The notes: generated from the letters alone by a model not told the origin. 64,000 bases of DNA from Planctomycetota bacterium (GCA_021808105.1 JAKBCC010000001.1:32753-96752); one strand, 5' to 3'. Counted from the first letter of the stretch, positions 16,412 to 47,422 are shown. A program made the numbers and translations.

Positions 16412-16413
16412 TT

Positions 16414-28186: not shown

Positions 28187-28190
28187 AGCT

Positions 28191-28277: not shown

Positions 28278-28380
28278 CGCAACCGTTTCCGTCTACTTTA
28301 ATCAATGCCTGCCGTGTTCACGAAGATGGACCCGTAACGTTTCTGATCTCTGCCGCCTGCTTACCAGAGGGGCATAACTT

Positions 28381-28389
28381 TGCTATAAT
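28381..28389 (+). promoter_or_regulatory. extended -10 element TGCTATAAT upstream of the ABC exporter gene
   Basis: Perfect TGnTATAAT, 34 nt before the ATG at 28423. Confidence 0.35.
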
Positions 28390-28422
28390 CCGGTATTATT
28401 GGATGGTAATCGGGAAACCTTA

Positions 28423-30588: not shown

Positions 30589-30688
30589 AACTGACGTGTC
30601 CGTTGGAAATCCTGTGTCGGCTCTGGCAGCTTGCGTTTCTGTGTATTCGGGGAAATTATTAACTTGCAACACCTTTGGAGAATCGTTC

Positions 30689-33600
30689 ATGGCCGGCAAT
30701 ACTGAACTACCGTTCACCGGAGAGCGCTACGTCCCGAGTCTTCATGGTTATGTCGAACTTGAACACCGCCACCGATACCACCTCGCCAGCCGATTGGCTG
30801 CCGGAAAGCGCGTGCTCGATATTGCCTGCGGGGAAGGCTACGGCTCTGCAATATTGGCTCAAACGGCCCGACATGTGGTGGGAGTTGACATAGAAGAATC
30901 AGTGGTCGCCCACGCGCATGCTAAATACGCCAGCGAAAACACAATGTTTCGCGTTGGGAGATGCGAGAATATCCCCGTTCCGGATCATTCAATTGATTTG
31001 GCGGTGAGTTTTGAAACGCTTGAGCACACCCGCGACCAGGACCAGATGCTCGCAGAGTTTCGACGTGTGCTCGAGCCGGGAGGTGTATTGATTCTATCCA
31101 GTCCAAACCGATCTTATTTCCTCAATGCCAACGCGCCACCAAATCCTTTTCACGTGAAGGAACTTGGATTATTCGAGCTGGATAGTCTCATGCGAAATAA
31201 CTTTAAACATGTGCGAATTCTCGGCCAGCGCGTGGCTTACGGTTCCGTGGTTGCTCCACTGCAGGAGAAACTCACCCAGATTGAGTTGTTTGACACCAAC
31301 GGACGTCCGATCTACGAGCACGAGAGTATGGAGCATTGGTGGATATATTTTATTGTGATTGCTTCCGATGGCGTACTTCCGGAATCGGTTTCGGGAATGC
31401 TCGGTTCCGCACTCCGCGAGGAATATTTCGACGGGCTCATCGGCCAACTGCAACGCGAGGTTGCTGAAAGTCATGCGTCGATTGCGACACTGCAGGCGGA
31501 ACCTGGACGGATGACCGACGATCGCGATTCGGCCATTAAATCCCTTGAAGGGCAGGTAGCATTATCCAGATCAAACGAGCAGCAGCGAGCGGCCGAGCTT
31601 GAAACTGCGCGGTCAGAGCTTGCTGACATCAAACGCCATTTGGCCGCTTCGCAGACTTTGGCCTCCGATCGCGATTCGGCCGTTAAATCTCTGGAAGCAC
31701 AGTTGGCATTATCCAGATCAAATGAGCAGCAGCGAGCGGCTGAGCTTGAGACTGCGCGGTCAATGTTTGCTGAACTCAATCGCCAGTTGACCGCTGCGCA
31801 GGCGCTGTCCGGCCAGCGTAATTCGGTGATCAAGTCCCTGGAGGCATTATTGACCGCCTCGGAAAAGCTGTCATCCGATCGTGATTCGGCGATCAAATCT
31901 CTGGATGCGCTTTTAGGTGCCTCTAAGGCCAATGAGGAGAGGCAAAAGGCCGAAATCCATGCGTTGAATTCACGGTTCGCTGACCTTGCGGGGCAGTTGG
32001 CTGTGTCCAATCTAAATGGGGAGCAATATGCCAGGGAACTCGCAAAAATTAATCGGCGATGGACCGAGAAATTGCGACTGCGAATCAGGGCCTTGCGGAA
32101 GCAAACAAAGCCTTTACGTTATTTCCTGATGGGAAAACAGTTTCTAGCAGACGGGTCGCGTGATTCTTGGTATACCCCTGCCGCTTCCCAAAAGACCGAA
32201 GTGCGGTCGGTCGTAGGGTTCATCAAAGCCATCCGCCGGAAGACCCGGCCGGTGCGGCACCTGCTGATGGGAAAACCAGTTAAGTTGAAAAATGCCCGGT
32301 CGAATATTACTCCACCACAATTTAACATCGAAGATAGAATTGCGACGCAACCGACGTCCGAAATAATAAAGCACCCAGTGCCATCGACCTTGATAGGTCG
32401 GCGGCGTGCTGCCCTTGCAAGCGATGTTGAGCGCCGGATTAAAGATGCCCAGAAGCCCGTGCCGATTGGCACGAGAAGCGTCGTCGGCCCCACGATATCT
32501 ATCGTCATGCCGGTTTACAATACGCCTCCGGCTCTGCTGGATCTGACAATTCTTTCAGTACGCGCTCAGGAGTACCCTAACTGGGAGTTATGTATTTGCG
32601 ACGACGGGTCCAATTCCGGAGATGTCGCGGACACTGTTGAGCGACACGCGAAACAAGACCGGCGTATCAGGTTCCTACGCCAGGAAGTAAATAAGGGAAT
32701 AAGCGCGGCCAGCAACACGGCACTGGCATTGGCCAGCGGTGAGTTTGTCGGCCTCCTGGATCATGACGATGTTCTCTTACCCGATGCAATGGCACAGGTG
32801 CAAGCCGCCATTGCCGAATTTCCCGACGCCGATATGCTCTACACCGATGAGGCCATTATTAATGAGGATGGCTCGGTCCAGCGTGTATTTATCAAGCCGG
32901 ACTGGAGTCCGGCGCTCTTGACCTCCGTCATGTATACGGGCCATTTCTCGGTGTATCGAAAATCCCTTTTGGAGGGGGTCGGCGCATTTCGTTCCCGGTT
33001 CGACTTCTCCCAGGATTATGATCTCGCACTCCGGGCCAGCGAGGCGGCGCACCACATCGTACACGTGCCTCATATCGCTTATGCCTGGCGGGCGATCAGT
33101 GGATCGGCGGCGGCTGGGGGGAAGCCCTTTGCCAGAGCGACAAATATTGCAGCCCTTACCGACGCCCTGCAGCGACGTTCATTGCCAGCGCACGGCGACG
33201 CGTTGCCATACTCAAACCGCGCCTTCTTTGATAGAAAATCTCTCTCGGATTTCCTATCCATTATTATCCCTTCGGACAACGACCAGATGATAATCGAAAC
33301 CCTGGATCTGATTCGGGGCCTTTCAACTTATAAAAATTATGAAATACTTGTGGTTACCAAATCCGCGATAGTCGGCCGCATACAGTCACCTGGCGGCGGC
33401 CCAAATATTCGGTATGTGAAGTATGATAAACCGTTCAACTTTTCCGACAAATGCAATGCTGGAGCCGCTCAAGCGCGAGGCAATGTTTTGGTCTTCTTTA
33501 ACGACGATGTGCGAGTGATAACCCCGGACTGGATTGAAACGCTTTTGGAGTGTCTGCACCTTGGAGGCGTGGGAGCAGCGAGTCCCAAGATGATTTATGA

Positions 33601-35182
33601 CAACGGCCTGATTCAGCATGCCGGAATGGTTGCCGGCGTACGCCGGCTTGTCGGTACCGCATTCCACTGTCTGCCCAGCGATAGCGGCGAATATTTTAAT
33701 ATGGCACAATCGACACGGGAGGTCTCCCTGCTCTCGGGTGCGTGTCTGGCAATTCCAGCCGATGTATTCCGTGATGTTGGCGGCTTTGACGCAAAAAACA
33801 CGCCCGTAGCCCATTCGGACGTTGACTTATGCTTACGCATACGTGCTCGGGGGCTGCGATGCGTATACACACCTCACGCAACCCTGCGGCATACCGGGCA
33901 CGTATCCATCGGTTCGGTTGAGAAAGCGGCAACCAGGAAACACGTGCGGGATAAAGCGGACATCTTTCTGCTTCGCCGCTGGTGCCGTGAAATCAGCTAC
34001 GATCCGTTCTTTACAAAGCATATGCGGGACCTTGTTTACCTTGATTCGCCGGAGAACTACCAGGTTCACGCGCCCCTGATCGCTGCCGAGCATGGCGGAA
34101 CTGATATCTTGCTTATCGCTCACGATCTCTCGCAAAGTGGCGCTCCCCGGGCACTGGTAGATATGGCCCGGATATTGAAGGAGGCTGGAAATTTCGTTGT
34201 GGTCACCTCTCCGACGGATGGTCCCCACCGAGATACTCTTCTGGGTATGGGGATTCCCGTAATCATCGATGCGCACGTATTAACCGGCCACGATACGGTG
34301 GTCGATTTCGGAAAAAATTTTGATATTGTGATTGGCAATACCGTGCTGAGCTGGCGGGATATTAAGCGTTTATCTGAATATACCCGCACATATCTCTATA
34401 GCCTGGAGTCTAATTTGATTCCCCAACAATTCTTGCCACTTCCGGGTTTCACCGACGCGATACGGGGGGCCAGTGGGGTCTGGTCGGTAACTGAGCGGAC
34501 CGCACGGCATCTGCGTACGTCTCGTGATGATATCGATATCCTGCCCAATCCGGCAGCAGTGATAGGATCTATCAAGGGCGACCGGCCTCCGGGCTACAGG
34601 GAACAAGTTCGAATTGTGTTGATTGGGTCGCTGGAGTCACGAAAGGGACAGGATATAGCAGTAGAGGCGATAATGCGAATGAGTGAGCAACAGCGCCGGC
34701 AAATGACCTTGGCGATGTTCGGGCGGCGGCATGACCCAGATTTTGTTGCAAGTCTGATGCAGAGGATTGAAGGGGTTTCAGGTATTGAATTGGGGCCCGA
34801 ACTCGCCCCTTCAGATTGCCTGAAAGAAATCCGACAAGCGGATATTGTCTTACTTGCATCACGTGACGACACCCTGCCACTTGTATCACTGGACTGTCTC
34901 GCTCTGGGGCGGGTATTGGTATGCACGCGCGAGACTGGAACAAGCGAATTTTTAGAGGACGGACTATCAGGTTTCATTGCTGAAAATGCTTCCCCTGAGG
35001 CTATTGCGGACGCCCTCACAAGGGCGTTGGCCCAGCGACAGCACTGGGCGGATATCGGCCGGCGAGGTCGTGAGATTTGTGAGCGAAATTTTACATACGA
35101 GATATTCCAAAAACGATTGCTTGGCTACATTGGCTGCCCCGATGCTCTGTCAAGCCTGCAAACGGGGGTTGATCGGCCATAA
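30689..35182 (+). CDS. giant multidomain glycan synthase: class I SAM methyltransferase, coiled coil, 2x RKxTRPxRYxxMxK motif, GT2, GT2, GT4
   Basis: The ATG at 30689 has a GGAGA ribosome-binding site; the upstream in-frame stretch overlaps the ABC gene. MT motif I VLDIACGEGYGS. GT2 domains start at ISIVMPVYNTP and LSIIIPSDND. GT4-like C-terminus. Confidence 0.8.
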   Translation: MAGNTELPFTGERYVPSLHGYVELEHRHRYHLASRLAAGKRVLDIACGEGYGSAILAQTARHVVGVDIEESVVAHAHAKYASENTMFRVGRCENIPVPDHSIDLAVSFETLEHTRDQDQMLAEFRRVLEPGGVLILSSPNRSYFLNANAPPNPFHVKELGLFELDSLMRNNFKHVRILGQRVAYGSVVAPLQEKLTQIELFDTNGRPIYEHESMEHWWIYFIVIASDGVLPESVSGMLGSALREEYFDGLIGQLQREVAESHASIATLQAEPGRMTDDRDSAIKSLEGQVALSRSNEQQRAAELETARSELADIKRHLAASQTLASDRDSAVKSLEAQLALSRSNEQQRAAELETARSMFAELNRQLTAAQALSGQRNSVIKSLEALLTASEKLSSDRDSAIKSLDALLGASKANEERQKAEIHALNSRFADLAGQLAVSNLNGEQYARELAKINRRWTEKLRLRIRALRKQTKPLRYFLMGKQFLADGSRDSWYTPAASQKTEVRSVVGFIKAIRRKTRPVRHLLMGKPVKLKNARSNITPPQFNIEDRIATQPTSEIIKHPVPSTLIGRRRAALASDVERRIKDAQKPVPIGTRSVVGPTISIVMPVYNTPPALLDLTILSVRAQEYPNWELCICDDGSNSGDVADTVERHAKQDRRIRFLRQEVNKGISAASNTALALASGEFVGLLDHDDVLLPDAMAQVQAAIAEFPDADMLYTDEAIINEDGSVQRVFIKPDWSPALLTSVMYTGHFSVYRKSLLEGVGAFRSRFDFSQDYDLALRASEAAHHIVHVPHIAYAWRAISGSAAAGGKPFARATNIAALTDALQRRSLPAHGDALPYSNRAFFDRKSLSDFLSIIIPSDNDQMIIETLDLIRGLSTYKNYEILVVTKSAIVGRIQSPGGGPNIRYVKYDKPFNFSDKCNAGAAQARGNVLVFFNDDVRVITPDWIETLLECLHLGGVGAASPKMIYDNGLIQHAGMVAGVRRLVGTAFHCLPSDSGEYFNMAQSTREVSLLSGACLAIPADVFRDVGGFDAKNTPVAHSDVDLCLRIRARGLRCVYTPHATLRHTGHVSIGSVEKAATRKHVRDKADIFLLRRWCREISYDPFFTKHMRDLVYLDSPENYQVHAPLIAAEHGGTDILLIAHDLSQSGAPRALVDMARILKEAGNFVVVTSPTDGPHRDTLLGMGIPVIIDAHVLTGHDTVVDFGKNFDIVIGNTVLSWRDIKRLSEYTRTYLYSLESNLIPQQFLPLPGFTDAIRGASGVWSVTERTARHLRTSRDDIDILPNPAAVIGSIKGDRPPGYREQVRIVLIGSLESRKGQDIAVEAIMRMSEQQRRQMTLAMFGRRHDPDFVASLMQRIEGVSGIELGPELAPSDCLKEIRQADIVLLASRDDTLPLVSLDCLALGRVLVCTRETGTSEFLEDGLSGFIAENASPEAIADALTRALAQRQHWADIGRRGREICERNFTYEIFQKRLLGYIGCPDALSSLQTGVDRP
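31517..31990 (+). repeat. in-frame tandem repeats, period 147 nt (49 aa), encoding the coiled coil
   Basis: Copies at 31520-31666 and 31667-31813 are about 90% identical over the first 100 nt. Further degenerate copies reach about 31990. Peptide unit DRDSA[IV]KSLE.Q.ALSRSNEQQRAAELETARS. Confidence 0.8.
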
Positions 35183-35411
35183 AAGAGCCGAAGGGTCGGT
35201 TGCATATTTTCCGAATTGAGCCGATACAATCAATTTTTTAACCGCCCTCTGGCGCGGTAATAAATGTTGTAATGCTAGGGTTTGGAATTGATGGTTTGGA
35301 ATTGATGGCAACGCAGTTTGGGATTAAGTTGGTAGTTTCGGTTGTTGCCGCGTCCAATTATCGCGGGTGTTCCGAAATTAAATTTCGTGCCGGCCGCTTG
35401 GATTTAATCGG

Positions 35412-36170
35412 TTGCGGGGTCTTGAACTTAGGATGCGTATTGACATGATTACCTGTTCGGTCGGCGGCGGCGACAAATTTACTGAAACAGTTGTGCTGTG
35501 GGATTCTCTGGCATCTCAATGGCAGCTGGCTCCAAACGAGGGGGCATACGTCGACAGGCAGCAGGGTACGTCGTGCGCCAATTGCGGATCAAACCTGCGT
35601 TCAATCGCATTGGCTGACGCCATTCGCAGCGCAGTAGGAACGGATTTGACGCTGCAGGCCTATGTAACGCAACCCGAGGCACGCACCTTGTCCGTTCTGG
35701 AAATCAACGAGGCGGGGCACCTAAGCCCGACGCTACGGCAACTGACTGGGCATGTGTTGGCCGCGTACCCCGCTGTCGACACGCACGCACTGCCAGTAAC
35801 ACCTTTGATATCGTGGTTCATTCTGACACTTTAGAGCATGTAACAAACCCGGTACATGCCCTTATGGAGTGCCACCGGGTGCTCCGCCCGTGCGGCTGGC
35901 TGTGCTTCACAGTGCCAACGATCATTGGACGCCTTTCCCGCAGCCGCAGCGGCTTGGCGAAAACTTTTCATGGCACCCCCCCATACAGCGACCGATGATT
36001 TCGTGGTTCATACCGAATTTGGTTCCGACATGTGGACGTATGTTCTTCAGGCGGCCTTTTCTTCCGTCACCGTCAACACCGTTGACTTTCCCGCAGCCCT
36101 CGCCCTGTCCGCACGAAAAAGCGGCCCCCAGTGTTGTTCGGATGCCGCGTCATGGCTGTGGCCGCAATAA
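35412..36170 (+). pseudogene. frameshifted Zn-ribbon class I methyltransferase (decayed paralog of the 46679 gene)
   Basis: The motifs FDIVVHSDTLEHV..RVLRPCGWLCFTVP are split across at least two reading frames (35412-35834, 35813-35998, 35856-36170). Confidence 0.5.
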
Positions 36171-36189
36171 GTTATGATATACTCTTGGC

Positions 36190-36330
36190 ATGGCTAAAGT
36201 TTACGTTGAGACAAGTTTTTTCAGCGCGTGCGTCACCGATCGGTCAAGTGAAAAGATTATCGGATGGCGAGCTTCGAGCAACGAATGGTGGATGACACGT
36301 TATTACGCCAGATATGTTACAGGAGTTTGA
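36190..36330 (+). pseudogene. N-terminal fragment of a PIN-domain protein (46 codons)
   Basis: MAKVYVETSFFSACVTDRSSEKIIGW resembles the VapC/PIN N-terminus; it ends after 46 aa. Confidence 0.35.
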
Positions 36331-36332
36331 AG

Positions 36333-36611
36333 ATGCCCCGGATTAAAAACATCAATGTTGTTTCGGAAAAAACGCCGGTTGACGATGTCCGCGCTGTCCG
36401 CGAGCGATTGAACCGCGAAGCAGGCGGTGATATTCATTTATTGATACAACAGTCACGTGCGGCTACCGAGAAATTTAGTGCCAGGCTTGGGCTTAAAATG
36501 ACATCGGCGGCGGCTCGCCCGGCTCGCTACCAGCGGGCCTGCCGGACCAACCGTATTATTTCATCGCGTGTTCGCACGCGCAGACCTGGCCGGACATCGG
36601 CCAAGCCGTAA
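36333..36611 (+). CDS. small hypothetical protein with Arg-rich C-terminus
   Basis: ATG with AGGAG ribosome-binding site 8 nt upstream; no family recognised. Confidence 0.35.
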   Translation: MPRIKNINVVSEKTPVDDVRAVRERLNREAGGDIHLLIQQSRAATEKFSARLGLKMTSAAARPARYQRACRTNRIISSRVRTRRPGRTSAKP

Positions 36612-36877
36612 GCCGCAAAAGCTGGGAGAAGCGAAACGGGGACGCAGCTAGTTTTTGAGGATAGCAAGACAAAACGGCCGCCCGAATTTGGCATTGGCAG
36701 CATCCGAAGCAGCGTCCGAAGCTTGAGACCATTGGTTATAGCTTCTACACTTTCACGAATTATTTTGGCTTCAACTACGCCATATTTTTTAGCGGTGGTT
36801 AAAAACAATCCGTTCAATGGCTGAAATTCCACCACACAGTGGTTGATATTCAACCGGTTAACGGATATAATTCCAGC

Positions 36878-38125
36878 ATGTTGGTTCAACGATACATAAC
36901 ACCGCTTGTCGAAATCGCACTGCTTGATACACCTGCCGTTTATATCCAAGGGCCTCGGCAGGCCGGCAAAAGTACGCTTGTGCAAATGCTTTCGGAAAAG
37001 ACGGGGCGGCGTTATCTGTCGCTTGATGATGCTGCCACGCTCGCCGCTGCCCGTACTGATCCGGGCGGCTTTCTCGCACGATTTGACGGGCCGATCGCGA
37101 TTGACGAAGTGCAGGCGGCACCCGAACTGGGCCGCGCGATTAAAGCCGCTATAGACCGGGACCGCAAACCGGGGAAATTTTTGCTGACCGGCTCTGCCGG
37201 CATCATGGTTATTCCTGAGCTGGCTTTACAGCTTGTGGGGCGGATGGAACTGCTTACTCTCTGGCCGTTGGCGCAACGCGAAATCACCGGCACGCACGGT
37301 TCGATGATTGATGAACTATTGGCCGAAGCGTTTGTCGGTCTGCCCATTAACAGCGAAGGGCGGCAAAAGTTGCTTTCACGCCTGATCGCCGGCGGTTATC
37401 CCGAGCCGCTGCAACGCACAACTCCGGAATCAAAATCGCGGTGGTTTGATTCCTATGAAACCACCATTCTCCAGCGCGATGTGCGTGACTTGGCCAATGT
37501 GGAAAACCTGGGCATATTTCCCAACCTGCTGCGACTGCTGGCAGGCCGCGACATGTCCATTCTGAATGTTGCCGATGTGGCGCGAACGCTTTCACTTCCA
37601 CAAACTACGGTGAAGCGATATTTGGCGGTACTGTCCGGTTTGTTTTTGACCGGTTCGCTTCCCGCCTGGCACCGCAATGCCACAGCACGGCTGGCCAAAG
37701 CCCCGAAGGCCATGCTGGTAGATACCGGCTTGGCCTGTCACCTTATGGATTTGGATATGGATCGGCTGGAGGCCAATTCGACCATGGCCGGTCACCTGGT
37801 GGAAAATCTGGCGGCCATGGAACTGATCAAGCAGGCGGGATGGGCAAAAACAAGATCTGAATTTTTTCATTTTCGCACGCTTTCAGGGGCAGAAGTGGAC
37901 CTCGTGCTGGAAGATCGCCGGGGAAGGGTTGTCGGCATAGAGGTAAAATTTTCCCAGACCCTTTCCAAAACAGATTTGCGCGGTATGGAGGTACTTCGCC
38001 AAGCCGCCGGCCAAAATTTTTTACGCGGCATTATTTTTTACAGCGGTCATGAAACGCTTCCCTTCGGTCCGGATTGCTGGGCGGTTCCGATAGATGCACT
38101 TTGGAACGGCGTTAAATCATCCTGA
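36878..38125 (+). CDS. AAA_14/DUF4143-type ATPase
   Basis: Walker A GPRQAGKSTL and C-terminal SGAEVDLVLE..VVGIEVKFS motif. Paralog of 47683-48954. Confidence 0.8.
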   Translation: MLVQRYITPLVEIALLDTPAVYIQGPRQAGKSTLVQMLSEKTGRRYLSLDDAATLAAARTDPGGFLARFDGPIAIDEVQAAPELGRAIKAAIDRDRKPGKFLLTGSAGIMVIPELALQLVGRMELLTLWPLAQREITGTHGSMIDELLAEAFVGLPINSEGRQKLLSRLIAGGYPEPLQRTTPESKSRWFDSYETTILQRDVRDLANVENLGIFPNLLRLLAGRDMSILNVADVARTLSLPQTTVKRYLAVLSGLFLTGSLPAWHRNATARLAKAPKAMLVDTGLACHLMDLDMDRLEANSTMAGHLVENLAAMELIKQAGWAKTRSEFFHFRTLSGAEVDLVLEDRRGRVVGIEVKFSQTLSKTDLRGMEVLRQAAGQNFLRGIIFYSGHETLPFGPDCWAVPIDALWNGVKSS

Positions 38126-38167
38126 TCGGGAATGTTTTTGGCGCGGTAATTAAGTTCGCACGCATCC

Positions 38168-38515
38168 CTATTGATCAAGAATTACGACGATCGCGTCAAG
38201 GAGTCGCTGCGCGTGAATCGACGCGACCTGCCAGAGAACATCCGGATTCACGCTTCCATAGTCGTGGGCGAGGATATGGCGAGTTGCAATAATTTTTCGC
38301 CATTCAATTTCAGGGTGGACTTTCTGGAATTGGGGCGACACCGCTCTGGCGGCTTCGCCGATCGTTTCGATCCAGCGCTCAACTGCGGCGCGGAATACCT
38401 CATCATCATCCAAAGCCACTCTTTCTCGTCCCACAGCGTTACGAATAAGCTGCGTGACCGCGTGCCGCATGTCTTCGAGTCGAGCGCGATCATAAACATC
38501 AGGACTCATAGACAA
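38168..38515 (-). CDS. hepT: HepT (HEPN/DUF86) toxin
   Basis: Rx4HxY HEPN motif in RHILAHDY. Overlaps the mntA stop by 17 nt. Confidence 0.8.
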   Translation of the reverse strand: MSMSPDVYDRARLEDMRHAVTQLIRNAVGRERVALDDDEVFRAAVERWIETIGEAARAVSPQFQKVHPEIEWRKIIATRHILAHDYGSVNPDVLWQVASIHAQRLLDAIVVILDQ

Positions 38516-38807
38516 CCCTTTGTGTCCTTAGAATTTCCTGGCGGCGATAGGGATTGGTAATAAACCTGTCCTCCACAAGATCAACCGCACGACCCGCGAA
38601 AACCGCGGATGCCTCCTCCATCATTTCAGGAAGATTGTCAAAGGTCATGGCTCCGCCATGATCAAATTCCAATAACAGATCCACATCGCTGGTCGGCGAG
38701 AAGTCGTTGCGTAATATCGACCCGAAAACAGACAATTTACGAATCTTCCAGTGCCGACAATAGGTTGCAATCTTTTGCGTATCCACCGGTATTGCAAATG
38801 TCTCCAC
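38499..38807 (-). CDS. mntA: MntA minimal nucleotidyltransferase antitoxin
   Basis: GSx9DxD motif in GSILRNDFSPTSDVDLLLEF. Confidence 0.8.
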   Translation of the reverse strand: METFAIPVDTQKIATYCRHWKIRKLSVFGSILRNDFSPTSDVDLLLEFDHGGAMTFDNLPEMMEEASAVFAGRAVDLVEDRFITNPYRRQEILRTQRVVYES

Positions 38808-38990
38808 GGTTCACCTCTTCAACTGGTCGGACCCTTGCTTGAAACAAAGACCCAACGATACAATTATGGCAGAGATTATAACCGCCCCGCGTTCAGGAGC
38901 GAAGCACCCACAAAGCGAAACCGGCGTGCCGGTTATTCGCCAGCCTGCAGGGCCGAAAATGTTTTATGCGGTGCTATTTTCCACCATCCA

Positions 38991-41900
38991 TCATGCCCCG
39001 GCATGCATCAACCCCAGGGCTGGAATTTTGGATTTATGGGCACTGCCGTTGTCTGCATTATGTCGGTGGGGAGGCTCAAGGACATCGGCCAGATCAGGGT
39101 GCCGGCGGTAGTCAGGGTAATCACCCGTGTGAAGGGATAACATCTGGTAGGTTGACTGGCGCACCATCTCTATCATGGATTGCGTGTGCGCATCCACGGG
39201 AAGTTTTTGAAGCCAGAACATTTGCACTTTCAGAACCTCACGAAATAGATTGATCGCCCTGGCTTTAAGCGTCACGCTTTGGCTGTGACGGCGGTGATGA
39301 TTCAGCGGATCGGGCACGAAACAAATCCAGCCGTCCTGCAGGAGATTCAGATAAAACATCCAATCGCCGGCATGCCGGAGGTCCTGCATCATCGGACGTA
39401 ATTCCGCAGTGATGGGTTTGCGGAACAACACCGCGCTGGCGTTAGGAATGGTGTTTTTGATAATCAGCGAATCCATGATTTCCAGAGGTCCGGGGCGTAA
39501 ATAGGCGCTTTGCCATTTATCCGCATGAACCTCCCGCGTGTACTGAAGATAGTCATTGCCCAGGATGGCACCCCGCTCATCCATCATCTTTGATTGTGCG
39601 TAACTCAACACGGCGTCGGGATGACGGAACCCGTCTACCAGGCGGCCCAACAATGTCGGCTCACACAGATCATCCGCTTCCGCTATCCAGATAAGTTCCG
39701 ATGCGCATTCATCAATTCCGCGCAGCCATTGTGCAAAGACCCCCTGGTTTTGACGGTTTTCAATAATACGGAAAGGAACAGTGCCGCGGGAAAGAATCTC
39801 GCGCGCCACTTCCACGCTGTTATCTTCCGAGGCATCATCGAGAAAAATAATTTCCGCCGGGCGATAGGTCTGCTGCAGAATGCTTTCCAGGCGTTGGGGA
39901 AGGTAATGGGCGTAATTATAGTTAGGCACTACTACGCTGACGGCTGGAAATGTGCAACCCAGTTCTTTTGCCAGGTCACAGGCATAGATAGTGTGGTCAA
40001 AATGCTCCTTAATTAAAAGCGGACCCGCCTGGGCCACGTAGCGTCGGCCTGCGGAATCAGCCAGGAAGTCAATAACGGCCCGACCCATGGTGCGGGTATC
40101 CTCATAGGGCACCAGACGTCCCAGCCGGGGTGTGACGATTTGCGTAAATCCGCCCGCGGAAGCAAATCCAATCACCGGCAGGCCCGCATGAAATGCTTCC
40201 AGGACCACACTGGGAAAAGGATCTTCACGCGAGGTCATCAAGTACAGATCAGCCGCGGCAAAATACCGGCTGACATCGCGCGTGCGCGGAACAAAATGAA
40301 AATGCTCCGGAGTGGGTGCCGCGCGAAGCAGTCGTTTCACGATAATCTCAAAATCCTGGTGCAGGTCGCCTACCCATACCAGATGAATAGCGGGATTCCC
40401 CGCCAGAGCGGCATTACCGGCCTGGATGAATAAATCCGGTCCCTTGCGCCGGTCTCCAAAACCGGCGGCCAGCACCAGAGGGGCATCTGCCGGAATGCCC
40501 AGTTCTGCCCGTACATCTTGGCGAATCGTATGGCGGTCCTTCAGAAATTCATTGGGCGTATACATTCCCTGCGCCTTGATGAGCACTTTTTCCGGCGGAA
40601 TTTCCGACAGCGACAGAAAAGAGTCGCGCACAATCGTGGAGGCGAAAACCACGCGATCCACAGCCTTGGCCGTTATGCCTAAATTCTCGGCCTCGCCAAA
40701 TTGCCGAATCACTCCGGCCATTTCATGCACCAGCCAGAGTACTTTAAATCCGTGCCCCTTTAAGTCACGGGCGATTTCGCCGGACACCACCGTGTTACAA
40801 ATGGCTCCGAAGTAAGATTGCGATTTCAGTTCTGCCAAGAGCGCCGTACGCTGCTGGCTGGATAGCTGCCACCAGCGATAAATTTCTCCGCATTGGGCGA
40901 ACTGGTCTTCCAGATCACCTTCACCCAGCGTGATGATCGCAAGAGTGCAACCCAGTTGTCGGGAAAGATCTCGGCATACATTAAGAATGATAAGTTGCGC
41001 ACCATGCGGATGACAGTCGTGCGTCACCACCACGAGTTTGCGCGGCAGTTGCCCGGCGGGGAATTGTTGCAACGCCTCAGCGGTGGCCTGCAGCCAAGCA
41101 TACCCATAGCGCCGATCCGGCTCAAGATACGCACCTTCCGCCCATTCATTCCAGGCGTTGATAAAAACAAATTGTTCCCCGGCTGGAAGGTTTTTGGAAG
41201 TATATTCGCACGCACTATTGAGCCATTGGCGGTACAGGGCAGGTGTTGCGCCGGCATAGGTTACGCCATGGCCTGGTTTGCGGGATTCATTATCCCATCC
41301 CGGGCAAACGCCGCGGAACAGACGATAAGGTGGCTGAGGCAGCTCCTGACATTTTTCGATCAGATTAGGGTAGTCGTATACCGTTCCGGCATAGTTTGAA
41401 TTCAGGCCCTGAATGTCGGATGTGATAATCCGCGTGTCAATATTGTTGGGGGGAAATTCAATGGCATAATCAAAACCGATGGCAGCGGGATCGATGCGGT
41501 CAAAGGACTGGGTATAGGCGATAACTATTTCACCTATGCCGCAGTCCCGGCAATATTGCCGCCAGCGCCGCGCCGTGGCCGCCGGATCAGGCAGAAGGGA
41601 GGGGCGATAAACAACCAGCAAGGGACGCCCCTCAACGCGGATGTAACGGGAATCTGTAAAAAGCGAAGTAACTTCGTGGATAAACGCGAGGTCATCTTCG
41701 GCGCTGTGCTGCTGTTGGATCAGAACGTCGTTCTCCAGGCCATCCCAGCACCGCGACCAGGATTCATTGGCCCAGCAGATACAGAACGGAAAATCCAATT
41801 CCGGACGCCTAAGCATTTGCTCCAGTGGATGTTCCAACAGTTTTCGTCCATTAAACCAATAATAGTAGTAACAGAAGCCCTGGATGCCGTATTGCCGCGC

Positions 41901-43790
41901 CAGTTCAATCTGCCGCTTCTGAACATCCAGCACACGCAGATCATAAAATCCCAATTCCCCGGGCAGGTGCGGCTGATAATGCCCCGCAAACTGCGGCTGG
42001 GTTTTAGATACGTTGGTCCATTCTGTAAATCCTTTTCCCCACCAGACATCGTTTTCGTGAATGGGATGAAACTGCGGCAAATAAAAGGCGATGGCCCGGA
42101 TGCGCGTATCAACGGCCATCCATTGGGATTCATTCACATAGTCCGCGGTGGCCCCGGACATTCTGGTCGGTGCCACCGTGCCTGTTGGGCGCATCCGGGC
42201 AGGCGCTTCGGGAGCAGCGGCAAAGGAAGAGGATCGCGGCAGTTCGGTGTGCGGAAGCGGCTTTCTCATGATCCAGTAACGCAAGGGGCGGGTTTTTTTA
42301 CGCAGTTGTCGTAGCGATTCAAGGAACGTCAGAGTTTTCCGTGCTGGGAAATTACTGGCTTGATCGCATTGCTCCATGCGTGCCGCCGCCAGGGATTTGT
42401 TCATGAAGAAATAACGTATCGGGCGCGTTCTTTGGCGCAATATTTTGAGCCGCCCGCGCAAGGTTCGAGCTTCGCGCACGCGAACCAGCTCGGCGATCCG
42501 CAGTTGACGCTCTGTCAACGCCGCCTGGAGTCCGGCGATCGTTTCGTCGCGGTGTGACAACTGTGCGGCGATTTCTGACACCTGCGTTTGCAACATGGCA
42601 ATACGATTGTTGCGTTCGGTTAAATCCTGTGTGAGCGCTGCGGCAGATTGCCGGGTGCCGGCGAGAAGATCGGTGAGTTCAACGATATGATGCGATCCAT
42701 CCGCTACCGCCGCGTTCAGGCTGCCGAGGGCCTCCTCGCACTGGGCCAGGTTTTCGGTGCTTTCAGCCACCTGTTTTTGCAACGTGGAAAGATCGTGTTC
42801 GCGCTGGGCCACCTGGCCGGCAAGCACGGCGGCGATCTGATCCCGCTGGGCAACCTCCAGTCGAAAATGAGTGGCTTGTGTGTCCGAAACATCCAAGGCT
42901 CGCCGCACGTTCATAAACCGTTGATTGCGTCCACGGATCATTTGGGCGGCTTTAAGTGCGGTATCGATGTGCCCGCGCTCAAGGCTCACATTTTCCGCGG
43001 GCAGCCCAAAAGGATAGTCGAAGGCCATGAAATCGACGGCGTAAAGTTTGCGAAGAAGCTCGATGCTGCGGGCGGAAAAAAATAGGGGGGAATAGGGGAG
43101 CAGACTCTCGTTGTATTTCTGCTGTGCGGGATTCCTAAAGGCCGCCGGGCCGATACGATCAGCGAGATTTTTCCAGAGGCTTTCCGGGTCTTCCATTTTG
43201 GCAATTTGTGAGTAACGCACCTTGCCAATGCGGAGAACGTGGCTCTGGGGTGTCCAATGCGGGTCAATAATATCAGGCCATTGTGTCGCATGCAGATATT
43301 CCAGAAAGCTCTGAATATTGTGTGCAATATCGTCAACGGATTGAATTTCCTGACGATAAAAATCAGCGTTGATGAATGGATCTGCCTGCAAGGGCTCGCG
43401 CAACAGAATTTTAGATTGCCAGGCGGAAAAGATTCTTGTATAGGGATTACGCACCAGAGCAAAGCGAAAAAAATCCGGTGAAAGCACTATTTTTTTCAGG
43501 TCCACAGGGTCCAGGCCGGTCACGTTTGGACAGGCTTTATAAAAACTGTCATGAATGGTCAGACGGGGGTCGGTTTCATAACTGCGCAGACTGTCGTAAT
43601 TGAAAAATTCCGGCGCATCAAGCTCCGCAAACCACCATTTCAGGGATGTACAGGCCACCTTTGGGGTGGAAACATAATGCAGCAGATACCGGTAAGATAC
43701 CAGAGATCCCACCGACAAACTGGTCCAATCCGTATCGGTCATGGTATCAAATAATTCGCTATGAAAATTATCCATCTGAACACGCCCCAT
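38991..43790 (-). CDS. giant multidomain glycan synthase: sulfotransferase-like domain, coiled coil, 2x RKxTRPxRYxxMxK motif, WbsX-like GT, GT4, GT2
   Basis: N-terminal RNPYTRIFSAWQSK (sulfotransferase-like). Coiled coil at about aa 300-440. Motifs LRQRTRPIRYFFMNK and LRKKTRPLRYWIMRK. WbsX-like GFCYYYYWFNG. GT2 VSVVVPNYNYAHYL...FLDD. Confidence 0.75.
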   Translation of the reverse strand: MGRVQMDNFHSELFDTMTDTDWTSLSVGSLVSYRYLLHYVSTPKVACTSLKWWFAELDAPEFFNYDSLRSYETDPRLTIHDSFYKACPNVTGLDPVDLKKIVLSPDFFRFALVRNPYTRIFSAWQSKILLREPLQADPFINADFYRQEIQSVDDIAHNIQSFLEYLHATQWPDIIDPHWTPQSHVLRIGKVRYSQIAKMEDPESLWKNLADRIGPAAFRNPAQQKYNESLLPYSPLFFSARSIELLRKLYAVDFMAFDYPFGLPAENVSLERGHIDTALKAAQMIRGRNQRFMNVRRALDVSDTQATHFRLEVAQRDQIAAVLAGQVAQREHDLSTLQKQVAESTENLAQCEEALGSLNAAVADGSHHIVELTDLLAGTRQSAAALTQDLTERNNRIAMLQTQVSEIAAQLSHRDETIAGLQAALTERQLRIAELVRVREARTLRGRLKILRQRTRPIRYFFMNKSLAAARMEQCDQASNFPARKTLTFLESLRQLRKKTRPLRYWIMRKPLPHTELPRSSSFAAAPEAPARMRPTGTVAPTRMSGATADYVNESQWMAVDTRIRAIAFYLPQFHPIHENDVWWGKGFTEWTNVSKTQPQFAGHYQPHLPGELGFYDLRVLDVQKRQIELARQYGIQGFCYYYYWFNGRKLLEHPLEQMLRRPELDFPFCICWANESWSRCWDGLENDVLIQQQHSAEDDLAFIHEVTSLFTDSRYIRVEGRPLLVVYRPSLLPDPAATARRWRQYCRDCGIGEIVIAYTQSFDRIDPAAIGFDYAIEFPPNNIDTRIITSDIQGLNSNYAGTVYDYPNLIEKCQELPQPPYRLFRGVCPGWDNESRKPGHGVTYAGATPALYRQWLNSACEYTSKNLPAGEQFVFINAWNEWAEGAYLEPDRRYGYAWLQATAEALQQFPAGQLPRKLVVVTHDCHPHGAQLIILNVCRDLSRQLGCTLAIITLGEGDLEDQFAQCGEIYRWWQLSSQQRTALLAELKSQSYFGAICNTVVSGEIARDLKGHGFKVLWLVHEMAGVIRQFGEAENLGITAKAVDRVVFASTIVRDSFLSLSEIPPEKVLIKAQGMYTPNEFLKDRHTIRQDVRAELGIPADAPLVLAAGFGDRRKGPDLFIQAGNAALAGNPAIHLVWVGDLHQDFEIIVKRLLRAAPTPEHFHFVPRTRDVSRYFAAADLYLMTSREDPFPSVVLEAFHAGLPVIGFASAGGFTQIVTPRLGRLVPYEDTRTMGRAVIDFLADSAGRRYVAQAGPLLIKEHFDHTIYACDLAKELGCTFPAVSVVVPNYNYAHYLPQRLESILQQTYRPAEIIFLDDASEDNSVEVAREILSRGTVPFRIIENRQNQGVFAQWLRGIDECASELIWIAEADDLCEPTLLGRLVDGFRHPDAVLSYAQSKMMDERGAILGNDYLQYTREVHADKWQSAYLRPGPLEIMDSLIIKNTIPNASAVLFRKPITAELRPMMQDLRHAGDWMFYLNLLQDGWICFVPDPLNHHRRHSQSVTLKARAINLFREVLKVQMFWLQKLPVDAHTQSMIEMVRQSTYQMLSLHTGDYPDYRRHPDLADVLEPPHRHNADNGSAHKSKIPALGLMHAGA

Positions 43791-46678: not shown

Positions 46679-47422
46679 GTGCAGTGGAGGCAACGTATGG
46701 CGTTATTCAGCAATCCGGGATATTGCAACATTTGCATGGAAGACACCACATTTACCGCTGAGCAGACGTGGTTGCGCGATCACTATTTCTGTCAGCGTTG
46801 CCGCACGATTCCGCGTCAACGGGCACTCGTTGAAGTATTAACAACTTTGCGCCCGGCCTGGCGGACACTGACCATTCACGAAAGTTCGCCGTCGATCGGC
46901 TTTTTTTTCAAACAGTGCCCCGCCTACAGCGCGTCCCAGTTCTTCGAGGATGTTCGACCAGGCGAGTATCGCAATGGATTCCGCTGCGAAAATCTTGAGC
47001 ACATGACCATCGCTTCCGAATCGTTTGATATTTTCATCACACAAGATGTTTTTGAGCATGTATTCAATCCCGAACTGGCCATGCCGGAGATCATGCGCGT
47101 GCTGCGCCCGGGCGGCATTCATATTTTCACAGCACCGAAACACAAAACGCTGCTTAAGTCCGTTCGTCGCGCGCGCCTGAACAACGGTGCCGTTGAGCAT
47201 CTCCTGGAACCTGCCTACCATGGCAATCCCATTGGCGATGGGCGCAGCCTGGTCACATTTGATTATGGCGCGGATTTTGACGATCTCATTCAGTTGTGGT
47301 CCGCCTACCGGACCAGCAATTACATGATCCGCAACCGCCATCTGGGCATTGACGGCGAATTTCTTGATGTGTTTGTCACGATCAAAGACACGGCCAATTA
47401 TGTCCCCGGCGAAAATTGCTGA
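46679..47422 (+). CDS. class I SAM-dependent methyltransferase with N-terminal Zn-ribbon
   Basis: CNIC...CQRC zinc ribbon. FDIFITQDVFEHV and RVLRPGGIHIF motifs. Confidence 0.8.
   Translation: MQWRQRMALFSNPGYCNICMEDTTFTAEQTWLRDHYFCQRCRTIPRQRALVEVLTTLRPAWRTLTIHESSPSIGFFFKQCPAYSASQFFEDVRPGEYRNGFRCENLEHMTIASESFDIFITQDVFEHVFNPELAMPEIMRVLRPGGIHIFTAPKHKTLLKSVRRARLNNGAVEHLLEPAYHGNPIGDGRSLVTFDYGADFDDLIQLWSAYRTSNYMIRNRHLGIDGEFLDVFVTIKDTANYVPGENC

Follow-up and report, generated by a model that had tools for sequence, protein, structure and literature searches.

Two giant fused proteins of a Planctomycetota glycan locus have the layout of cap-and-ruler polysaccharide synthases, one with a putative sulfotransferase terminator, near an MsbA-type ABC exporter

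Cap-and-ruler assembly is the best understood way in which bacteria set the length of their surface polysaccharides. To our knowledge, every cap that has been characterised is methyl, methyl-phosphate or Kdo, and we know of no ruler-type terminator for which sulfate has so far been demonstrated as the chain-terminating cap. The mechanism itself is experimentally established for WbdD/WbdA, WbbB and O7 ORF6 (PMC11231755), as is methyl capping for WsaE (PMC2943079). In Escherichia coli O9a and Klebsiella O3, the terminator WbdD is a kinase/methyltransferase, and the length of its coiled-coil ruler sets chain length (PMC3482155, PMC11231755). WbbB of Klebsiella pneumoniae O12 joins a GT99 Kdo-transferase terminator, a coiled coil and two polymerase glycosyltransferases (GTs); here a glycosyltransferase adds a sugar, beta-Kdo, as the cap instead of sulfate or methyl, and export proceeds via cap recognition by Wzt-CBM (PMC11231755). 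ORF6 of K. pneumoniae O7 carries a methyltransferase-kinase, a coiled coil and two GT2 modules in one protein of approximately 1400 aa, with a methyl-phosphate cap, a hidden kinase domain, a CBM-like domain and a Wzm/Wzt-CBM partner (PMC11231755). WsaE of Geobacillus stearothermophilus combines an N-terminal O-methyltransferase, which provides a 2-O-methyl cap, with two rhamnosyltransferase domains; its gene directly follows wzm-wzt and export is by Wzm/Wzt, but it serves the glycan of a Gram-positive S-layer protein, and the review of this system describes no ruler and a methylation that is length-independent in vitro (PMC2943079).

The window analysed here, a 64-kb stretch of Planctomycetota DNA, holds two giant open reading frames, at 30422/30689-35182 on the plus strand and 38991-43790 on the minus strand, neither with an internal stop codon (Table 1). 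Start 30689 is that of the public gene call, and the public 1497-aa protein is 100% identical to the plus-strand product. An earlier note on this DNA had seen in both genes one common architecture, and the open frames, the Pfam domain order and recovery in independent assemblies bear this out. Its term "convergent pair" is right as to opposite strands, but 3.8 kb with a split methyltransferase gene, a DUF4143 ATPase and a HepT/MNT toxin-antitoxin pair lies between the two, and a sister metagenome-assembled genome (MAG) has both giants in the same direction. The metagenomic source, together with the toxin-antitoxin genes, DUF4143 ATPases and frameshifted small methyltransferase between the giants, could be read as a sign of assembly chimeras or decaying pseudogenes, an explanation to which we give practically no credence: 7 contigs carry the identical plus-strand protein, and the gene order agrees among the three assemblies shown; full-length homologues with unchanged domain order occur at 66-88% identity in independent MAGs; and the catalytic and cofactor motifs are invariant. 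An origin by chimeric assembly is already contradicted by the independent assemblies and the full-length homologues.

Table 1. Features of the locus, in order along the window
Feature	Position	Strand	Details
GT2 glycosyltransferase, 349 aa, cassette gene 1; candidate primer/adaptor transferase	24431..25480	+	NCBIfam/Pfam GT2
GT4 glycosyltransferase, 767 aa, cassette gene 2	25584..27887	+	Pfam Glyco_transf_4 + Glycos_transf_1
Type-I MsbA/PglK-like half-size ABC exporter, 721 aa; candidate glycan exporter	28423..30588	+	ABC_membrane E 1.5e-33, ABC_tran E 1.1e-32
PDZ domain, ~128 aa, between TM1 and TM2 of the ABC (periplasmic loop)	28567..28962	+	AF2 pLDDT 80-89
MT-rod-twin motif-GT2-GT2-GT4 protein, 1497 aa; proposed methyl-capping terminator, ruler, polymerase	30689..35182	+	
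Class I SAM methyltransferase head	30773..31153	+	Methyltransf_11/25/31/23/12, five profiles above cut-offs
Predicted helical rod, plus-strand protein	31418..32104	+	229 aa, EEYFDG anchor to first motif; one proline
Tandem repeat within the plus-strand rod	31519..31846	+	TRF: 147 bp = 49 aa = exactly 7 heptads, 2.2 copies
Motif copy 1, plus-strand protein, LRKQTKPLRYFLMGK	32093..32137	+	
Motif copy 2, plus-strand protein, IRRKTRPVRHLLMGK	32231..32275	+	helical hydrophobic moment 0.61-0.68; net charge +6/+7
GT2 domain 1	32489..33103	+	Pfam Glycos_transf_2 aa 604-762, best stretch, E 4.1e-37
GT2 domain 2	33413..33940	+	second Glycos_transf_2 stretch; Glyco_trans_2_3 aa 973-1071; GT-A region ~909-1084
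GT4 (GT-B) domain, plus-strand protein	34103..35101	+	Glyco_trans_4_5 aa 1139-1232; Glycos_transf_1 aa 1306-1462
Small methyltransferase gene, frameshift-split	35412..35998	+	intact, 228 aa, in sister MAG L005
Sulfotransferase-rod-twin motif-WbsX-GT4-GT2 protein, 1599 aa; proposed sulfate-capping terminator, ruler, polymerase	38991..43790	-	
GT2 domain, minus-strand protein	39234..39947	-	Glycos_transf_2 aa 1285-1396; Glyco_tranf_2_3 aa 1282-1519
GT4 (GT-B) domain, minus-strand protein	39981..41048	-	Glycos_transf_1 aa 1091-1256; PDB GT4 matches; N-terminal boundary estimated
Glyco_tran_WbsX domain (NCBI label 'GH99-like')	41082..42092	-	PF14307 aa 567-903, E 7e-135
Motif copy 2, minus-strand protein, LRKKTRPLRYWIMRK	42261..42305	-	
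Motif copy 1, minus-strand protein, LRQRTRPIRYFFMNK	42396..42440	-	C-terminal end of rod helix
Helical rod, minus-strand protein	42405..42977	-	AF2 helices aa 272-362 + 369-462
Sulfotransfer_2 (PF03567) head	43011..43703	-	aa 30-260; 66 bits vs cut-off 22; E 7e-18
Gly/Ala/Ser/Thr-rich secreted protein, 809 aa, PEP-CTERM tail VPEPAALVLLALGTLGLLLKPRRSA	44118..46547	+	neighbour of the minus-strand giant gene
Small class I methyltransferase, 247 aa; possible sugar O-methyltransferase	46679..47422	+	Pfam
GT4-GT2 two-domain glycosyltransferase, 739 aa, far end of glycan locus	49062..51281	-	Pfam

Pfam searches, whose scores for the domains of both giants lie far above the curated thresholds, place the N-terminal domains of the two giants in the methyltransferase (MT) and sulfotransferase (ST) families, as had been proposed. 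In the plus-strand protein, the Methyltransf_11 match covers aa 43-136 (E 1.2e-23), the glycine-rich motif I VLDIACGEGYG lies at aa 42-52 (30812-30844), and PDB searches return O- and N-methyltransferases as matches to the head. The GT2, GT2, GT4 order read earlier for this gene agrees with the Pfam profiles; specifically, GT2 domain 1 matches a PDB chondroitin synthase (E 1.2e-25, aa 601-805), and the GT4 region spans aa 1139-1471 with Glycos_transf_1 at E 4.8e-18. In the minus-strand protein, where Pfam likewise agrees with the WbsX-like, GT4, GT2 order, the Sulfotransfer_2 match covers positions 4-252 of the 252 profile positions. This head contains the motifs PKVACTS (43644-43664), RNPYTRIFS (43425-43451) and DPHW (43242-43265), the first two of which (PKxGxT-like and RxPxxRxxS-like) we take to be the 5'-phosphosulfate- and 3'-phosphate-binding motifs of PAPS. 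Across 19 sequences, with identities down to 30%, residues P43, K44, T48, R114, N115, P116, R119, S122, H178 and W179 do not vary. Additionally, the head is modelled by AF2 at pLDDT 80-95, and its top Foldseek matches are PAPS sulfotransferases, at a non-significant E > 0.2; the head alone gave no match to PDB sequences.

Each head is followed by a spacer of the kind that the earlier note had described as a coiled coil of 150-250 aa. In the minus-strand protein the spacer, counted from the IRGRNQR anchor up to the first motif, is 170 aa long and free of proline. AF2 models it as helical, though not as one unbroken helix: the model interrupts the rod near its midpoint, at aa 363-368, and the rod may fold back on itself as an intramolecular hairpin instead of extending. 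A crude heptad score marks just part of the plus-strand rod; among relatives, rod lengths range from 191 to 267 aa, with 9/10 of them in two heptad phases. The same periodicity is found in ST-headed homologues. Measured between the end of the head and the post-rod motif, their spacers come in 35 different lengths of 58-295 aa, of which 26 belong to just two heptad phases (chi-square p 6.5e-7), with length steps of 14 and 35 aa within the window's own ST-headed clade. As a control, the downstream linker shows a uniform distribution of lengths over the heptad phases. Taken together, the spacers are genuine heptad rods, the minus-strand one being proline-free and helical in the AF2 model and the plus-strand one a predicted helical rod.

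At the base of each rod lies a cationic motif. The six frames of the 64-kb window contain exactly four copies of its core, T-[KR]-P-x-R-[YH], all of them inside the giants, with two copies per gene approximately 45 aa apart. Helical hydrophobic moments of the motifs range from 0.56 to 0.68, against 95th and 99th percentiles of 0.48 and 0.58 for the protein background, and their net charges are +6 to +8. The best mutual similarity of the two giants resides in the rod base and this twin motif (E 7e-12), not in the enzyme domains. The twin-motif module is rare and is also found with MT_23/MT_24 heads and RgpF bodies. The twin RKxTRPxRYxxMxK motif, cationic and amphipathic, is rare and lineage-specific, and derives from SWRxTxPLR, which is widespread as a post-rod motif; the duplication noticed earlier is present in each giant but is not a general feature of rulers. 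In WbdD, a membrane-associated amphipathic helix occupies the equivalent position (PMC11231755).

The layout of the minus-strand giant is not uncommon. The ST-headed architecture is found in 119 of the best 120 matches to it, and carriers include cultured Pseudomonas, Aeromonas and Mesorhizobium. The proteins of Pseudomonas farris (P0017), Aeromonas caviae (P0051) and Gallionella (P0018) are true homologues at 35-44% identity, and P0017 and P0018 share the head-rod-WbsX-GT4-GT2 order. The ST-headed giants of Proteobacteria share the rod heptad phase of the minus-strand protein and, in those aligned (including P0017 and P0018), its invariant sulfotransferase motifs. Unlike the window, they reside in classical loci (rml, Wzm, Wzt_C, sometimes PAPS genes), and they carry a single SWRxTxPLR in place of the twin motif. 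In all five loci inspected (Proteobacteria and one Bacteroidota MAG), the ST-headed giant lies directly behind Wzm-Wzt; rml genes are present in 4/5 and PAPS-synthesis genes in 3/5, and the A. caviae locus has cysD/cysN, a sulfate permease and APS kinase. In A. caviae, a GT2/GT4 protein resembling the product of 49062..51281 comes after the ST giant. The proteobacterial giants are annotated solely as "GH99-like domain-containing protein" or "rhamnan synthesis F family protein". Searchable literature yielded neither a description of this architecture nor chemical evidence for a sulfate-capped glycan; the view that a sulfotransferase-capped ruler polymerase is undescribed thus stands as to descriptions, but the architecture is common in public genomes. 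In one protein (P0126), the rod and GTs of the plus-strand giant (74% identity) sit under a weak Sulfotransfer_3-like head, which, with the varied partners of the twin motif, indicates at the sequence level that heads are exchangeable on the same body.

Both giants thus have a chain-modifying N-terminal domain, a rod and, C-terminal to the rod, three GT domains with a putative polymerase role. Compared by description, O7 ORF6 has the closest layout to the plus-strand protein (PMC11231755), which differs from it in its plain Methyltransf_11 head, its twin cationic motif and its MsbA-type neighbour; in O7 further GTs come from separate proteins (PMC11231755), whereas the plus-strand protein has an extra GT4 built in. 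Likewise, the terminator and polymerase that are separate proteins in WbdD/WbdA are fused in both giants. A phmmer search against all PDB chains returned generic MT, GT2 and GT4 proteins, with no WbdD or WbbB among the matches listed, and the likeness of the giants to WbdD/WbbB appears to be one of architecture, not orthology. The analogy to terminators of the WbdD/WbbB/WsaE type is nevertheless reasonable, given the position of the ST-headed homologues behind Wzm-Wzt. Terminator, ruler and polymerase are indeed present in one polypeptide, but not as a new kind of fusion, since WbbB, O7 ORF6 and WsaE precede it; the variation here lies in the putative sulfate cap and the unusual MsbA-type exporter nearby.

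In Campylobacter and Helicobacter, exporters of the PglK/Wzk type transport whole undecaprenyl-PP-linked glycans; they are MsbA-like half transporters without a CBM and offer a precedent for the export proposed here. The earlier note correctly placed an ABC exporter of the MsbA/PglK type directly upstream of the plus-strand giant gene. This protein fuses an ABC_membrane six-helix domain to an ABC_tran nucleotide-binding domain, and its best NCBIfam match is MsbA_lipidA (435 bits against a cut-off of 602), ahead of HepA (367/725) and PglK (167/1000); no equivalog cut-off is reached, and the PglK match spans the nucleotide-binding domain only. Unlike PglK/Wzk, it carries a 128-aa PDZ insertion between TM1 and TM2, which matches the PDZ domains of DegQ/DegS/MucD/CtpA at a Foldseek probability of 1.00 and is kept in Planctomycetota homologues of the ABC, lineage-wide rather than specific to this locus. 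The cassette of GT2, GT4, ABC and MT-headed giant has the same four-gene order in L085/L086 and, differently flanked, in L095/L096, and the ABC adjoins the MT-headed giant in the window and in L085-87, L088, L089 and L095/96. In the 64-kb window, ORFs of 180 aa or longer gave no match to ABC2_membrane or Wzt_C, and no CBM was found anywhere; tblastn with Wzm/Wzt against the closest loci also found nothing. The export checkpoint that defines the prototypes, Wzm/Wzt with a cap-binding CBM, is therefore missing in the window, in contrast to four of the five homologous loci elsewhere, which carry the Wzt_C cap-binding module. Also absent from the window are an initiating phosphoglycosyltransferase, a ligase and PAPS genes. 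Hence the locus departs from the prototype in having, in place of Wzm/Wzt-CBM, an MsbA-type exporter with a PDZ insertion in a conserved cassette, and this ABC is a plausible exporter of the glycans.

On the observed domain identities, intact cofactor motifs, heptad rod with phase-conserving length variation, cassette and genomic contexts, we consider it rather probable that each giant is, on its own, a complete cap-and-ruler synthase for polysaccharide assembly of the ABC-transporter-dependent type. In the mechanism that we propose, the three C-terminal GT domains would act at the cytoplasmic face of the inner membrane, where a lipid-linked glycan grows sugar by sugar, and the two cationic amphipathic motif helices at the rod base would anchor the GT end to the membrane. 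The N-terminal head (SAM methyltransferase in the plus-strand, PAPS-type sulfotransferase in the minus-strand protein) would be held at the far end of a rigid heptad coiled coil, whose length from residue counts would be approximately 25 nm in the minus-strand and up to approximately 34 nm in the plus-strand protein. Methyl or sulfate would be added only to the growing end of chains that extend as far as the head; this terminal modification would stop elongation and so set chain length. The MsbA-type ABC of the cassette would be the best candidate to carry the completed lipid-linked chain through the membrane, as PglK/Wzk do, with no cap-reading CBM, for delivery to lipid A-core or another final acceptor.

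It is possible, though in our judgement unlikely, that the heads are ordinary decorating enzymes that act along the chain or on another substrate, that the coiled coil solely oligomerises or scaffolds, and that length is set otherwise. Marine bacterial polysaccharides commonly have sulfated repeat units, the terminal pyruvate of Klebsiella O1 diversifies its glycan without length control (PMC11231755), and no exporter with a CBM for cap reading is present in the window. Against this, a head that sits beyond a 58-295-residue rod of conserved heptad phase is hard to explain if it acts on every repeat, the family is tightly coupled to Wzt_C transporters in other phyla, and all characterised proteins of this layout are terminators (PMC11231755). 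A stronger contender, which falls somewhat short of an even chance, accepts the giants as cap-and-ruler synthases but takes the adjacent ABC to be the housekeeping lipid A/LPS flippase of Planctomycetota, export being by a Wzm/Wzt, possibly with CBM, encoded elsewhere in the genome. The ABC family is Planctomycetota-wide and elsewhere stands among housekeeping genes, so that the window ABC may simply be the lineage's MsbA: its homologues form a continuous identity series from 90% to 32% (Phycisphaerae, Planctomycetia, Gemmataceae), whereas the giants fall from 70% to 36%; those at 53% and 48% identity lie in unrelated housekeeping surroundings without a giant GT nearby; MsbA is the top NCBIfam match; and the PDZ insertion is shared across the lineage. 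However, in four loci whose flanks differ or that have been rearranged, the ABC stays beside the MT-headed giant, with ABC identity as low as 67%, the glycan locus has no other exporter, and PglK/Wzk set the precedent for export of whole lipid-linked glycans.

That the glycans instead serve protein glycosylation, for example of the Ser/Thr-rich PEP-CTERM neighbour, and not LPS or free polysaccharide, seems to us quite improbable. The 809-aa neighbour is secreted and Ser/Thr/Gly-rich, its tail is present with a PEP-CTERM Pfam score of 19.4, just below the cut-off of 20.7, and WsaE-type capped glycans do go onto the S-layer protein in Geobacillus (PMC2943079). The gene, reported earlier as downstream, is in fact divergent from the 5' end of the minus-strand giant gene. 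It adjoins the ST-headed giant in two to three related MAGs of approximately 80% identity, and this adjacency carries no weight because it is seen solely among such genomes; the MT cassette in L095/L096 lacks the PEP-CTERM protein. Moreover, the 64-kb window contains no exosortase, oligosaccharyltransferase or Wzy_C/PglL-type ligase, so that the suggested decoration of the PEP-CTERM protein finds no support. Small methyltransferases similar to that at 46679..47422 also follow giant genes in L001, L003 and L004. To return to the reading that we prefer, cap-and-ruler synthesis by each giant, a bolder extension of it would have sulfate as a genuine chain-terminating cap and both synthases docking via their shared twin RKxTRPxRYxxMxK helices at one PDZ-bearing MsbA-type exporter, which would replace Wzm/Wzt-CBM and couple chain completion to export by an undescribed mechanism; this remains speculative, and we would not expect it to hold in full.

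A sulfotransferase head on the cap-and-ruler chassis, if true, would represent a new, strongly charged cap chemistry, which would alter antigenicity and the recognition by phage and complement, and would also alter what the binding module of the transporter has to read. Since the ST-headed family has members in cultured bacteria (Pseudomonas, Aeromonas caviae, rhizobia), where Wzt_C and at some loci PAPS genes accompany it, the sulfate-cap idea is directly testable at the bench. The heptad-phase rule, under which nearly all changes in rod length preserve the register between head and base, offers a simple signature at the sequence level that could help to recognise true rulers in genomes. The Planctomycetota copy, in turn, raises the question of whether capping-based length control can work without a CBM checkpoint, via an MsbA-type exporter, and the answer bears on the modularity of these pathways and on glycoengineering.

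The + protein (MT giant, 1497 aa), in which a methyltransferase (MT) head is followed by a coiled-coil rod, a duplicated RKxTRPxRYxxMxK motif (twin motif) and three glycosyltransferase (GT) domains, and the - protein (ST giant, 1599 aa), which carries a sulfotransferase (ST) head, are each encoded by an ORF that runs uninterrupted from end to end in the translated window. The domain identities and order proposed for both giants in the earlier note are right, because Pfam places the same domains in the same order. The start of the + gene most likely lies at 30689, because public data call a 100% identical 1497-aa protein from this position and an ORF beginning at 30422 would run into the ABC gene upstream. 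Additionally, an identical + protein is present on seven contigs, with the same neighbours in the three assemblies compared, and both giants have full-length homologues of 66-88% identity in independent MAGs; the assembly chimera that the earlier note named as a possible refutation is thereby ruled out.

Features of the two giant proteins, of the glycan locus and of related or nearby loci (window positions or residues)
Feature	Position	Strand	Evidence or remark
Class I SAM methyltransferase head, + protein	aa 43-136	+	Pfam, E 1.2e-23
Two GT2 regions, + protein	aa 604-762 and about 909-1084	+	Pfam
GT4/GT-B domain, + protein	aa 1139-1471	+	Pfam
Sulfotransfer_2 head, - protein	aa 30-260	-	Pfam, whole profile covered, 66 bits vs cut-off 22
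Glyco_tran_WbsX domain, - protein	aa 567-903	-	Pfam, E 7e-135, very strong
GT4 domain, - protein	aa 1091-1256	-	Pfam
GT2 domain, - protein	aa 1285-1519	-	Pfam
128-aa PDZ insertion, periplasmic loop TM1-TM2 of ABC exporter	28567-28962	+	AF2 pLDDT 80-89; Foldseek
Small class I methyltransferase, frameshift-split into 140-aa and 61-aa ORFs	35412-35998	+	
DUF4143/AAA_14 ATPase	36839-38125	+	within glycan locus
HepT/MNT toxin-antitoxin pair	38168-38807	-	within glycan locus
DUF4143/AAA_14 ATPase	47683-48954	-	within glycan locus
GH113 hydrolase	11219-12304	+	outside glycan locus
GT87-family membrane glycosyltransferase	14409-15767	-	outside glycan locus
Wzx-type flippase (Polysacc_synt_3)	61478-62992	-	outside glycan locus
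cysD-like, cysN-like, sulfate permease, APS kinase	L090 16888-21499 (Aeromonas caviae)		directly downstream of O-antigen-type locus with ST giant

An alignment of 19 homologues of the ST head, which are 30-76% identical to the - protein, shows no variation in the segments PKxACT (aa 43-48), RNPxxRxxS (aa 114-122) and HW (aa 178-179). We take these to be the 5'-phosphosulfate loop, the 3'-phosphate loop and the catalytic histidine region of PAPS-dependent sulfotransferases, respectively, and from their invariance the heads look active. The head is modelled by AlphaFold2 (AF2) with pLDDT 80-95, and six of the eight top Foldseek matches to the whole head-plus-rod model are heparan-sulfate or cytosolic sulfotransferases, but with E > 0.2 they are not significant. 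Searched by sequence against solved structures, the ST head has no detectable match, the listed matches of the - protein include neither WbdD nor WbbB, and no kinship of the giants to WbdD/WbbB or to any solved sulfotransferase was detected.

The ST-headed architecture is widespread. PF03567 together with GT domains is found in 119 of the 120 best database matches to the - protein, among which are proteins of Pseudomonas, Aeromonas caviae, Mesorhizobium, Rhizobium, Paraburkholderia, Variovorax and Rhodanobacter; the database labels of these proteins go no further than 'GH99-like domain', 'rhamnan synthesis F' or 'glycosyltransferase'. In a survey of five ST-headed loci from other phyla, genes for Wzm and Wzt directly precede the ST-headed gene in all five, Wzt carries Wzt_C, the CBM that recognises glycan caps in the prototypes, in four, rml genes are present in four and an APS kinase in three. 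In particular, the cys and APS kinase genes of Aeromonas caviae look like a dedicated PAPS supply, and an APS kinase flanks the two Pseudomonas loci (L001 and L091) as well. As judged from gene content, this Wzm-Wzt/Wzt_C/rml context marks capped O-polysaccharide systems of the ABC-transporter-dependent type, here provided with PAPS locally, and it is mainly because of the Wzm-Wzt_C and PAPS genes in other phyla that the ST head is read as a putative sulfate-adding terminator.

MT-headed relatives, for which some sources have the label 'O-antigen biosynthesis protein', far outnumber the ST-headed ones. The heads are exchangeable on a common body, because homologue P0126, which shares 74% identity with the + protein over the rod and GTs and conserves the rod-motif-GT2-GT2-GT4 body, has in place of the methyltransferase a head that matches Sulfotransfer_3 over its full length, but weakly (E 0.03, below threshold), and because the rare twin-motif module also links MT_23/MT_24 heads to RgpF bodies. 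Between Wzt and the ST giant, the loci of Pseudomonas farris (L001 9267-9932) and Gallionella (L004 9287-9964) encode a 221-225-aa protein, 58% identical between the two, which has no Pfam family and a faint SGNH-like match. The equivalent place in Aeromonas salmonicida, between wzt and a WbbB homologue, holds a 216-aa ORF that is described as 'sulfotransferase-domain' and left unexplained, and the authors detected no sulfate in the O-antigen, a case that serves as both a caution and a lead (PMC4483657). A relative of the rod-WbsX-GT4-GT2 part (40% identical, match at 10001-13588) lies downstream of Wzm/Wzt-like genes in a Candidatus Methanoperedenaceae archaeon MAG (L007), which may reflect inter-domain transfer or else a binning error.

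The coiled-coil spacers claimed in the earlier note are borne out by a helical AF2 model of the - protein and by heptad-phased lengths in both families. The rod of the - protein is modelled as two long helices (aa 272-362 and 369-462). Measured from the I-R-G-R-H/N-Q-R anchor at the head end to the conserved post-rod motif, ST-headed rods take 35 distinct lengths of 58-295 residues, nearly all without proline, and 26 of these 35 lengths fall into residue classes 2 and 6 modulo 7 (chi-square p 6.5e-7); the control, the post-motif linker, has lengths uniform modulo 7, but only 10 distinct ones. Within the - protein's own clade, the lengths are 170, 170, 156, 156, 156 and 135, which gives steps of 14 and 35. 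In the + protein, 229 aa with one proline separate the EEYFDG anchor from the first motif; this distance ranges from 191 to 267 aa in relatives, nine of ten of which keep to two heptad phases, and a 147-bp tandem repeat within the rod corresponds to exactly seven heptads. A crude heptad scorer flags aa 310-438 in the - protein and only aa 298-341 in the + protein, whose rod is read as a coiled coil from its composition, the tandem repeat and phase conservation. Across the ST-headed homologues P0001-P0120, rod length (window positions 42405-42977 in the - protein) varies five-fold, mostly within two heptad phases.

Rod length thus evolves freely, nearly always in steps that hold head and base in register. 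This length pattern suits a rigid coiled-coil spacer better than it does a flexible tether or an obligate hairpin. The AF2 model interrupts the - rod near its midpoint, and a folded-back hairpin form may yet occur; the argument for a straight rod comes from unbalanced indels and the modulo-7 rule. With the standard helix geometry of ~0.15 nm per residue, straight rods would span roughly 25 nm in the - protein and up to 34 nm in the + protein, as reckoned from residue counts. The confinement of rod lengths modulo 7 is possibly usable as a sequence signature for rigid molecular rulers.

The duplicated motif described in the earlier note is present in both giants: the six frames of the window hold its core, T-[KR]-P-x-R-[YH], four times, always within the two giant genes. 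As a general hallmark of ruler proteins it is ruled out, since just 19 of 240 homologues have the strict form, and out of 1.84 billion representative proteins no more than six clusters match a profile of the twin-motif module. The general feature is a related motif, S-W-[RK]-x-T-x-P-[LV]-R (SWR motif), which 136 of the 240 homologues, ST- and MT-headed, carry where the rod ends on its C-terminal side, and because several Planctomycetota proteins (P0007, P0133, P0144-146) have both forms in tandem, we read the window motif as a probable lineage-specific, duplicated derivative of it. Pfam places no curated domain over the rod or the SWR motif in four distant homologues. The motif segments are the best-conserved stretch between the + and - giants (E 7e-12), with a helical hydrophobic moment of 0.56-0.68 (95th and 99th percentiles in these proteins, 0.48 and 0.58) and a net charge of +6 to +8. 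They sit where WbdD has, at its base, an amphipathic helix associated with the membrane (PMC11231755). By this analogy we infer a role as membrane anchors, and they may also dock to a shared partner. The strict motif co-occurs with an MsbA-type exporter, which raises the hypothesis that the exporter is that partner, and all cases are Planctomycetota, so that lineage and function are confounded.

The nearest relatives of the window are Planctomycetota MAGs (79-80% identity), one close homologue being labelled Phycisphaerae. The glycan locus extends from about 24.4 to 51.9 kb, with housekeeping genes on either side, and profile searches of it found no Wzm/Wzt, CBM, initiating transferase, ligase/oligosaccharyltransferase, exosortase or PAPS genes; the window therefore departs from the prototypes, which are marked by Wzm/Wzt and a CBM. 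The + gene closes a four-gene cassette of GT2, GT4 (767 aa), ABC exporter and MT giant (24431-35182). This cassette, with a GT4 of about 760 aa, recurs between unrelated flanking genes and without the ST giant in two Planctomycetota MAG loci (L095/L096; L095 1790-12260), is present in rearranged form in L088 (10001-20942), and is represented by the ABC-giant pair alone in L089 (ABC identity 67%). The two giant genes, described in the earlier note as a convergent pair, do face each other in the window, but they are not a tight pair: they lie 3.8 kb apart, separated by a frameshifted small methyltransferase, a DUF4143 ATPase and the toxin-antitoxin pair, and are in tandem orientation in a sister MAG. 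The split methyltransferase is intact in the sister MAG L005 (228 aa, 16194-16880), there upstream, not downstream, of the MT giant, and the DUF4143 copies coincide with gene-order breakpoints between the window and the MAGs L005/L006. Promoter and terminator matches between the genes are no more frequent than in shuffled sequence. The PEP-CTERM neighbour is likewise real but not downstream, being divergent from the - gene and adjacent to it only among very close genomes. The GT87, GH113 and Wzx-type genes outside the locus point to at least one more, Wzx-dependent polysaccharide pathway nearby.

The ABC exporter (28423-30588, +) is an MsbA-like half transporter of type I. A cytoplasmic, CBM-like domain at the N-terminus does not account for its extra length, as the 128 aa sit between TM1 and TM2 and adopt a PDZ fold in the model. 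Foldseek relates the insertion to the PDZ domains of DegS/DegQ/MucD/CtpA with probability 1.00 (by Pfam alone, PDZ_2 E 0.16 and BACON E 0.015), and it is kept in Planctomycetota homologues down to about 32% identity. We know of no described PDZ-bearing type-I ABC exporter.

We infer that the GT domains at the membrane would polymerise a lipid-linked glycan while the cationic amphipathic motifs keep the rod base there, and that the head, sitting at the rod's far end, would modify only chains that extend to it, the modification stopping elongation. Two glycans of set length would result, the one with a methyl cap and the other with a sulfate cap. PglK and Wzk export lipid-linked glycans, and export through the MsbA-type transporter of the cassette is plausible, with about an even chance of being right. 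ABC homologues at 48-53% identity have housekeeping neighbours and no giant GT nearby, which weakens the claim of a dedicated exporter from wider synteny, and because of these contexts the transporter may instead be the general MsbA of the lineage. Alternatively, a Wzm/Wzt with its genes in another part of the genome may carry out the export.

The cap-and-ruler mechanism is established for WbdD/WbdA, for WbbB and Klebsiella O7 ORF6, both of which are single-polypeptide terminator-ruler-polymerases (PMC11231755), and for the methyl-capping WsaE (PMC2943079). The fusion pointed out in the earlier note was thus already known in WbbB and O7 ORF6 (PMC11231755), and by analogy the + protein is a member of this known class. 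The - protein would work like WbdD, WbbB, O7 ORF6 and WsaE, but it is an orthologue of none, and its head belongs to a different enzyme class. Searches of full-text literature outside the Mann, Kimber & Whitfield census (Glycobiology 2019) found no ruler described with a sulfotransferase terminator; that census is the likeliest to have catalogued one, and its abstract reportedly predicts new termination chemistries. Taken together, the capping concept and the fusion are already established, and the sulfate cap, widespread in predicted form, is easy to test, whereas any true departure could lie in the Planctomycetota wiring, with no CBM, a PDZ-bearing MsbA-type exporter and the twin motif.
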